Positions 42,308 to 42,600 of a stretch of 64,000 nt of DNA are shown here, piece by piece. The position numbers and the translations under genes were made by a program. Positions within the stretch are counted from its first letter, which is position 1; every line of letters begins with the position of its first letter. The DNA is from Convolutriloba macropyga (lineage: Eukaryota). Where the stretch lies: assembly GCF_964194025.1 (NCBI RefSeq), contig NC_134475.1:41788001-41852000 (forward strand), given 5' to 3'. The notes below the pieces were generated by a model. It did not search any database. It was not told the origin of the DNA and saw nothing but the letters and a program-made list of their open reading frames with translations.

Positions 42308-42600
42308 ATGATTGTTGGCGTTTTTGCTTTCCTATTTATAGTGTAGAAAATGGGCATTTTCATCTCACTTTTAGAAATATGTCTCAAATATTCCCATTTT
42401 TAGTGACGGTTTCTTTCTTTTTATTGGCTGGGAAGATATTCCCATTTTTTAAACCAGTTTGTGCAATTTCATTGGTTTTCATAGTTTGGGAATATTTATC
42501 CCATTTTTCTATTCAAGTTTTTCATTGTTTATTGGTTTTTAGAATTTGGAGTTTCTATTCTCCTTTTATTTATAAATGCTAGAATTTGATTGGCTAATAA
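42308..42600 (-). promoter_or_regulatory. Putative internal promoter between pol and env
   Basis: CTATAAATAGGAAAGCAAA (TATA at 42334-42340) nearly duplicates the LTR CTATATATAGGAAGCAAA. A TCATT initiator lies about 28 nt downstream. Upstream are four CCAAT boxes and TGGGA-N6-8-TCCCA palindromes. Confidence 0.6.

Follow-up and report, generated by a model that had tools for sequence, protein, structure and literature searches.

A predicted internal promoter and a candidate self-encoded activator in an env-bearing Ty3/gypsy element of Convolutriloba macropyga

The foamy virus transactivator Tas is an acidic, dimeric protein of 209–308 amino acids that binds elements at both viral promoters, and these elements differ between lineages; basal activity is higher at the internal promoter than at the LTR (PMC3798896, accessible text). 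In the Oikopleura elements Tor3b and Tor4b, 5'RACE places starts of transcription upstream of env, independent of the LTR, and in Tor4b this promoter (Penv) is located in the pol-env intergenic region (PMC4402516, accessible text). No LTR-shared motif, spliced accessory gene or transactivator is reported for Tor3b or Tor4b in that part of the source. VANC proteins of VANDAL transposons are also element-encoded, and their repeated non-coding target motifs differ among related families, although these are DNA transposons of plants and the outcome is DNA demethylation (PMC5735166, accessible text).

Ty3/gypsy elements that carry gag, pol and env, and of which an invertebrate genome contains multiple recent copies, have been described as 'ancient errantiviruses'; the accessible main text of that report does not contain 'internal promoter', 'accessory' or 'splic' even once (PMC13524379). 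Across the open-access literature that we searched, supplements excluded, there is no report of a transactivator encoded by a Ty3/gypsy element, and none of a foamy-like transactivator logic for internal env promoters.

The element and its copies

The window, which is the whole stretch of 64,000 nucleotides of C. macropyga DNA that was analysed (GCF_964194025.1, NC_134475.1, positions 41,788,001 to 41,852,000), contains on its minus strand a 13-kb LTR element that belongs to an env-bearing Ty3/gypsy family, family A. The gene order according to Pfam is gag, protease, RT, RNase H and integrase, then env, with a protease match that lies under the family cut-off (E 0.008). The env of this copy matches PF24664 (E 8.6e-22 and 1.3e-10), which we take to be a class III fusion family, and the env is hence presumably of the class III or gB-like type.

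38403 to 51444, minus strand: env-bearing Ty3/gypsy element (family A), interrupted by frameshifts in this copy (pro-pol, env, 3' accessory exon)
49999 to 50434, minus strand: true 5' LTR, with palindromes at 50348–50416, TATA box at 50328–50338, TCAGT at 50304–50308 and AATAAA at 50084
49979 to 49995, minus strand: primer binding site, with a match to the 3' end of host tRNA-Met(CAT)
39709 to 42053, minus strand: env, PF24664 (Monjiviricetes fusion-like), with a frameshift near 41490
38403 to 38838, minus strand: true 3' LTR, with palindromes at 38752–38820, those listed in the first-pass annotation

The terminal repeat of the window copy measures 1.44 kb, in contrast to a true LTR of 436 bp. 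The shorter length is assigned because the 5' repeat ends near the equivalent of 50434 in five of the seven other copies with a covered 5' end, and because 4-bp target-site duplications are found at the 436-bp boundary in three of five copies checked, although not in the window copy. The 5' repeat of the window copy stretches a further 1 kb (50435–51444) into the end of env and the accessory exon. This extension begins with TG and lacks a target duplication, and copies L034 and L048 show similar ones; second-strand priming at an upstream site, or tandem insertion, possibly accounts for them. The LTRs of families A, G and B (window 38403 and 49999; L031, L011) terminate in AGTATA, where CA would be usual. 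Large tandem arrays of the tRNA-Met gene to which the primer site corresponds lie at G000:C1, 77.67–77.77 Mb, and C4, 55.03–55.13 Mb.

The spacer between pol and env is represented by at least 40 copies in the genome at 89–100% identity (78 candidates, 40 scored). Four sequencing runs look like genomic DNA, with long contigs and an empty-site allele; none of the splice junctions predicted below is among the joints listed for them, which has no bearing on expression.

The pol-env spacer as a predicted promoter

The first-pass annotation had read this spacer as an internal promoter that repeats the logic of the LTR promoter in a foamy-like design, with one dimeric factor, possibly the spliced accessory protein, acting on both. 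The motifs that it listed for spacer and LTR are all present at those positions, in an element on the minus strand.

42307 to 42600, minus strand: predicted internal promoter
42423 to 42593, minus strand: four sense CCAAT boxes (42589–93, 42531–35, 42471–75, 42423–27), 48–60 nt apart
42487 to 42503, no strand assigned: palindrome TGGGA-N7-TCCCA
42429 to 42444, no strand assigned: palindrome TGGGA-N6-TCCCA
42351 to 42396, minus strand: two degenerate palindromes (42380–42396 and 42351–42367)
42331 to 42341, minus strand: TATA box, deleted in 1 of 17 copies
42307 to 42311, minus strand: initiator TCATT, predicted start at 42309
42055 to 42273, minus strand: ORF of 72 codons, lying between the predicted start and env, with its stop 1 nt before the env ATG

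Between 42308 and 42600 there are two palindromes (0.012 expected) and five half-sites (0.75 expected), and none of 2000 shuffles contains as many of either. The 'weaker copies' mentioned earlier are real and correspond to the two degenerate palindromes. The several CCAAT boxes number four, all in sense orientation (1.2 expected, p=0.028), and in the order given above they are retained in 12, 16, 17 and 17 of 17 copies. Conservation across copies, which had been proposed as a check, is seen in family A, where motif columns are less variable than other spacer columns (4/61 versus 87/531, p=0.026, 17 copies). The promoter diverges by 0.06–0.10 among family A copies, while flanking dS is 0.01–0.12 in two closer copies and 0.11–0.40 in five distant ones, and constraint is therefore visible in the distant copies only.

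The 72-codon ORF is full length in five of nine other copies, and a sixth shares its stop. Its position ahead of env on the predicted internal transcript counts against the circuit proposed below. Stop and start codons nearly abut between this ORF and env in family A, and among three ORFs of 103–109 codons and env in family B (L023:2398–3347). Reinitiation is possible at such junctions.

The U3 of the family A LTR, about 128 bp in length, consists of little beyond three palindromes and the TATA box. As claimed, a TATA word is common to the spacer (42323–42341) and both LTRs of the window copy (38725–38742 and 50321–50338), all on the minus strand, but the exact 18–19-mer differs between copies. 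The similar spacing reported for TCAKT also applies here, with 31 nt from the first T of TATA to the initiator A in both promoters (42340 to 42309; 50337 to 50306); however, the word is found at +30/31 in 7/8 family A spacers and only 4/8 LTRs. The pattern GGGA-N6-9-TCCC occurs at 42430 and 42488 in the spacer, three times in each LTR (38753/38779/38805 and 50349/50375/50401) and a single time elsewhere in the 64 kb. The degenerate palindrome at 42351–42367 stops 9 nt before CTATA, in the register of the proximal perfect palindrome of the LTR. Outside the listed motifs spacer and LTR are not alignable, and their overall similarity is weak (local alignment score 35, equalled by 6 of 500 shuffles). 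The family A U3 contains no CCAAT, and the CCAAT boxes, being specific to the spacer, are not copied from U3. L064 and L071, older relatives of family A, have a U3 with longer arrays of GGGA-TCCC palindromes.

A Pfam search for related envs returned 2276 candidates, of which 68 were scored and 20 loci were examined; the promoter comparison covers families A, G, B and C, with the families of L016, L018 and L019 left out. A promoter layout precedes env in all four families, whose spacers are otherwise dissimilar. Family G (L031/L032), with a pol that is 72–77% identical to that of family A in DNA, has CCAAT, TATA and then TCATT 76 nt before the env ATG. In family C the order before env is CCAAT, CCAAT, TGACGTCA, TATAAATA and TCAGT, with no palindromes, and in family B a CCAAT and a TATA-like box are located ahead of three small ORFs and env. 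The initiator-like word lies 30–32 nt downstream of TATA in families A, G and C, and the first ATG past the predicted start is the env ATG in families G and C.

Several further features of these families were observed. Copies of family B (L011–L013, L021–L024, L029, L030) form units of about 7.8 kb with an internal promoter, env, accessory exon, small ORFs and LTR, and no gag-pol in the 1.8 kb examined upstream. The spacer of family G is longer and carries short antisense ORFs upstream of the internal promoter, the longest of 91 codons (L031:2614–3236). Other env-bearing families (L016–L019, L025, L026) have several ORFs downstream of env, some of them cysteine-rich and RING-like, and one of 320 amino acids with a coiled-coil-like end.

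Judged by its sequence, the pol-env spacer of family A is very probably an internal RNA polymerase II promoter. This part of the earlier reading is well supported: the anatomy fits, the layout recurs in four families, and Tor elements offer a precedent (PMC4402516, accessible text). An internal promoter is likely, and is not new in itself, because of families C, B and G and the RACE-mapped promoter of Tor3b/4b (PMC4402516). Like Tor3b/4b, the element is an LTR retrotransposon with env, and its promoter ahead of that gene is a predicted one.

A second route to env begins in the LTR.

49963 to 49969, minus strand: candidate splice donor after the primer binding site, G/GTTAGT (slash, predicted junction), with a candidate acceptor at 42165

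This donor is retained in all five loci where the primer binding site was found, and the acceptor-like stretch at 42165 is conserved. Both facts fit a reading in which env is produced solely by splicing from the LTR and the motifs in the spacer are left over from a duplication of the LTR promoter or arose by chance in AT-rich sequence, as does the modest extent of spacer-LTR similarity and of constraint; the env of Tor3a is likewise LTR-spliced (PMC4402516, accessible text). We regard this reading as very improbable, given a palindrome count above that of every shuffle, CCAAT boxes that are specific to the spacer and a layout that recurs ahead of env in four families with dissimilar spacers, and given that family G, read by eye, has no strong donor after its primer binding site. 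LTR-derived splicing from this donor to 42165 may supply env and the accessory protein in family A, and both routes may operate.

Sites shared by spacer and LTR within families

Family G has no GGGA-TCCC palindrome; sites of the type CCRTCC-N4-GGACGG occur in its spacer and LTR alike, 21–22 nt ahead of CTATA. Counted over the 220 nt that precede TATA, and with both motifs picked after inspection of the sequences, GGGA-N6-9-TCCC is present in 8/8 LTRs and 8/8 spacers of family A and in 0/14 and 0/14 of family G, and GGACGG/CCGTCC is present in 13/14 LTRs and 13/14 spacers of family G and in 0/8 and 0/8 of family A. Background expectations per 220 nt are 0.004 and 0.017, respectively. These counts leave aside 4 of 11 family A loci, because L035 has lost its TATA, L036 has a cut spacer, L037 is rearranged and L038 could not be anchored. 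Of 18 further family G loci they leave aside five, L090 with a deleted spacer and L058, L069, L074 and L085 without an env match in the stretch. The swap of motifs amounts to two independent families, because copies within a family are not independent.

A k-mer screen with no motif preselected, covering 7 A, 11 G, 9 B and 5 C copies, gave a similar picture for conserved 6-mers common to spacer and LTR. Family A shares 22 (8 GC-rich) versus 13–15 in cross-family pairs (0–3 GC-rich), family G shares 6 (2 GC-rich) versus 2–5 (0), family B shares 6 (1 GC-rich) versus 0–1 (0), and family C shares 0. In family B the sharing appears weak, and no 7-mer is common to its spacer and LTR at the 70% cut-off. 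TATA-anchored identity is modestly higher within families than between them. Local alignment of the upstream regions does not single out same-family pairs (z of 2.2 for A, 3.0 for G and 0.8 for B, with cross-family values up to 3.3). CCAAT is present in 8/8 spacers of family A and 13/14 of family G, in contrast to 0/8 and 1/14 of their LTR windows. Motif columns are marginally better conserved than the rest in the family G spacer (p=0.058) and no better conserved than their surroundings in the family G LTR (13/32 versus 45/211 variable); for the family A LTR this test comprises two copies only.

A host protein could also act on such sites. A CSL/Su(H) paired site consists of two RTGRGAA sequences head to head, 15–17 bp apart. 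The first-pass annotation had named CSL among possible factors, and this is unlikely because only 5 of 13 half-sites fit RTGRGAA and the sister family G lacks the GGGA-TCCC palindrome; the remaining eight half-sites miss the consensus, and the half-sites are spaced by 6–8 nt rather than 15–17. A more general form of the idea is that the internal promoter is real, that each family tunes both of its promoters to one host factor and so co-expresses env and gag-pol, and that the accessory protein has another function. TGGGAA palindromes are similar to Ikaros-type sites and the GGTAAC of family B to an RFX half-site, and other host motifs are present, namely CCAAT, a CRE-like motif in family C and an E-box in the family B LTR; the five fitting half-sites count on the same side. 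We nevertheless consider a host factor rather unlikely, since related families with 46–48% identity in the barrel region of the accessory protein (see below) use unrelated motifs and since sharing between spacer and LTR is confined to families that possess the barrel exon. The internal env promoters of Tor elements are described with no mention of an element-encoded activator in the accessible text, which would suit a host factor (PMC4402516).

The accessory exon and a possible two-promoter circuit

An accessory gene is located between env and the 3' LTR.

41970 to 42053, minus strand: acidic env leader exon of 28 codons, followed by predicted donor GAA/GTAAGT
38956 to 39577, minus strand: accessory exon, 3' copy, after predicted acceptor TTTTTAG/, frameshifted near 39217
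50552 to 51175, minus strand: accessory exon, open copy of 207 codons in the extended 5' repeat, with an acidic start, a predicted Tudor/SH3-like barrel and a coiled coil

The only in-frame upstream partner of the accessory exon is the 28-codon env leader, and the predicted donor and acceptor are both phase 0 in families A, G and B. The donor GT is retained in 18/20 loci of family A and 11/12 of family G, and GTAAGT in 9/9 of family B. Homologous exons are found in these three families (35% for family G) and in at least three further lineages (P0018, P0019, P0036), which were not found as families in the C. macropyga genome. A clear homologue of the barrel exon is lacking in family C, which gave only a match with E about 1e-4 in a small set. 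A profile search with the exon gave 28 matches, none of them named and no Pfam family above cut-off, and an Atlas comparison of the protein gave nothing above 0.79. The exon is under strong purifying selection, with dN/dS of 0.05–0.10 in all nine pairwise comparisons.

The exon's dS (0.46–1.24) was dropped as a neutral yardstick because the same copies give 0.01–0.40 for pol and env. Its synonymous divergence is about 4–5 times that of pol and env (50552–51175 compared with L041–L049 and L033–L038), which suggests that the exon may have been swapped between lineages as a module. A tandem array at G000:C3:41121577–41172005 consists of units of about 1 kb, each of which includes the family A accessory exon's C-terminal half.

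The leader of 28 residues and the first 30 residues of the exon together contain 19 D/E and no K/R, and an acidic start is present in both families A and G. The barrel region, 46–48% identical between these families, has 10 K/R versus 4 D/E and a basic conserved core. A first fold model was set aside, as the coiled coil swamped it. The barrel was modelled with five strands (pLDDT 72) and resembles Tudor, KOW and PWWP folds (Foldseek E 0.014 and weaker), with no particular fold family standing out (best Z 6.8); a match with Z under 8 does not establish function. For the C-terminal helix, a parallel homodimer is predicted through the coiled coil (score 0.39 versus 0.00 for the best control, pLDDT 55), with at least 64% of contacts in common between runs. 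Of 30 solved pairs, 21 attained the mark used for homodimers (7 of 16 for animals), and of 23 single chains none did; resemblance to coiled coils of known structure may account for the result. As modelled, the protein combines a dimer with an acidic region and a domain of nucleic-acid type, a combination that would suit an activator that binds palindromes.

The Tudor/SH3 barrel is a common fold, more often a reader of methylated peptides or RNA. The palindromes could accordingly be RNA hairpins and the spliced protein an RNA export factor comparable to Rev, Rem or CERV, or a chromatin reader. Rem of MMTV is made from spliced RNA, shares the N-terminal leader of env and exports RNA. CERV of Cer1 is also an accessory protein from spliced RNA that exports RNA, and in the texts consulted (for Cer1, PMC10309623, accessible text) neither system is credited with a second promoter that has DNA sites in common with the first. 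The match of the barrel to KOW/Tudor domains and the existence of these export proteins (for Cer1, PMC10309623) fit such a function, and some stretches fold better than shuffles (z of -2.7, -2.8 and -3.9). However, the stretches next to TATA in the two internal promoters form no better folds than shuffles do (z of -1.0 and -0.7), conserved sites hold fixed mismatches, family G has direct repeats of half-sites, and the spacing between the sites and TATA is fixed in both promoters. We therefore consider RNA hairpins improbable.

Our preferred reading, to which we give an even chance, is that the internal promoter near 42309 is joined by the element's own spliced accessory protein, which would bind the palindromes at both spacer and LTR and activate both promoters. 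A host CCAAT-binding factor would provide basal activity at the internal promoter. The unspliced internal transcript would encode Env, and splicing of the env leader exon over env would give the accessory protein. This protein would dimerize through its coiled coil, place its two barrels on two half-sites and activate through its acidic N-terminus, amplifying its own promoter first and the LTR second. Activation of both would result in gag-pol RNA and Env being produced in one cell. The motifs, their family specificity, the conservation and phase of the splice sites and the selection on the exon are observed; fold and dimer are predicted, and we infer the transcription start, splicing, DNA binding and activation. 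The motif swap in family G and the predicted architecture speak in favour of the earlier proposal of one dimeric element-encoded factor, which would bind the shared sites.

The comparison with foamy viruses holds in several respects. The accessory gene of family A has the position of tas between env and the 3' LTR, lineage-specific elements are found at both promoters, here at the sequence level and in two families, and the protein has an acidic start and, by prediction, a dimer interface, joined by a predicted barrel. [quoted passage not shown] This is also a Ty3/gypsy element with a class-III-like env, unlike a foamy virus, and no Pfam match to a foamy protein was found in it. That the element works like a foamy two-promoter circuit with its own transactivator, without being a foamy virus, seems to us evenly balanced. 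Sequence comparison gave no indication of a link to Tas or Bel, with no Pfam family above cut-off and none of the 28 profile matches named, and the likeness would then be one of convergence.

Complex vertebrate retroviruses are characterized by DNA-binding transactivators that they encode themselves. Somewhat short of an even chance, in our estimate, is the broader proposal that a Ty3/gypsy clade evolved the foamy circuit independently, with an internal promoter that yields a spliced, dimeric Tudor/SH3-barrel activator whose DNA specificity co-evolves, family by family, with the palindromes of that promoter and of the LTR. Families A and G offer a ready pair for a reciprocal comparison of binding. 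If true, the proposal would give a purpose to the internal env promoter, which the Tor report left open (PMC4402516). It would also add a new class of sequence-specific activator, with mutually orthogonal switches in one genome, and would mean that complex two-promoter control arose separately outside Retroviridae.
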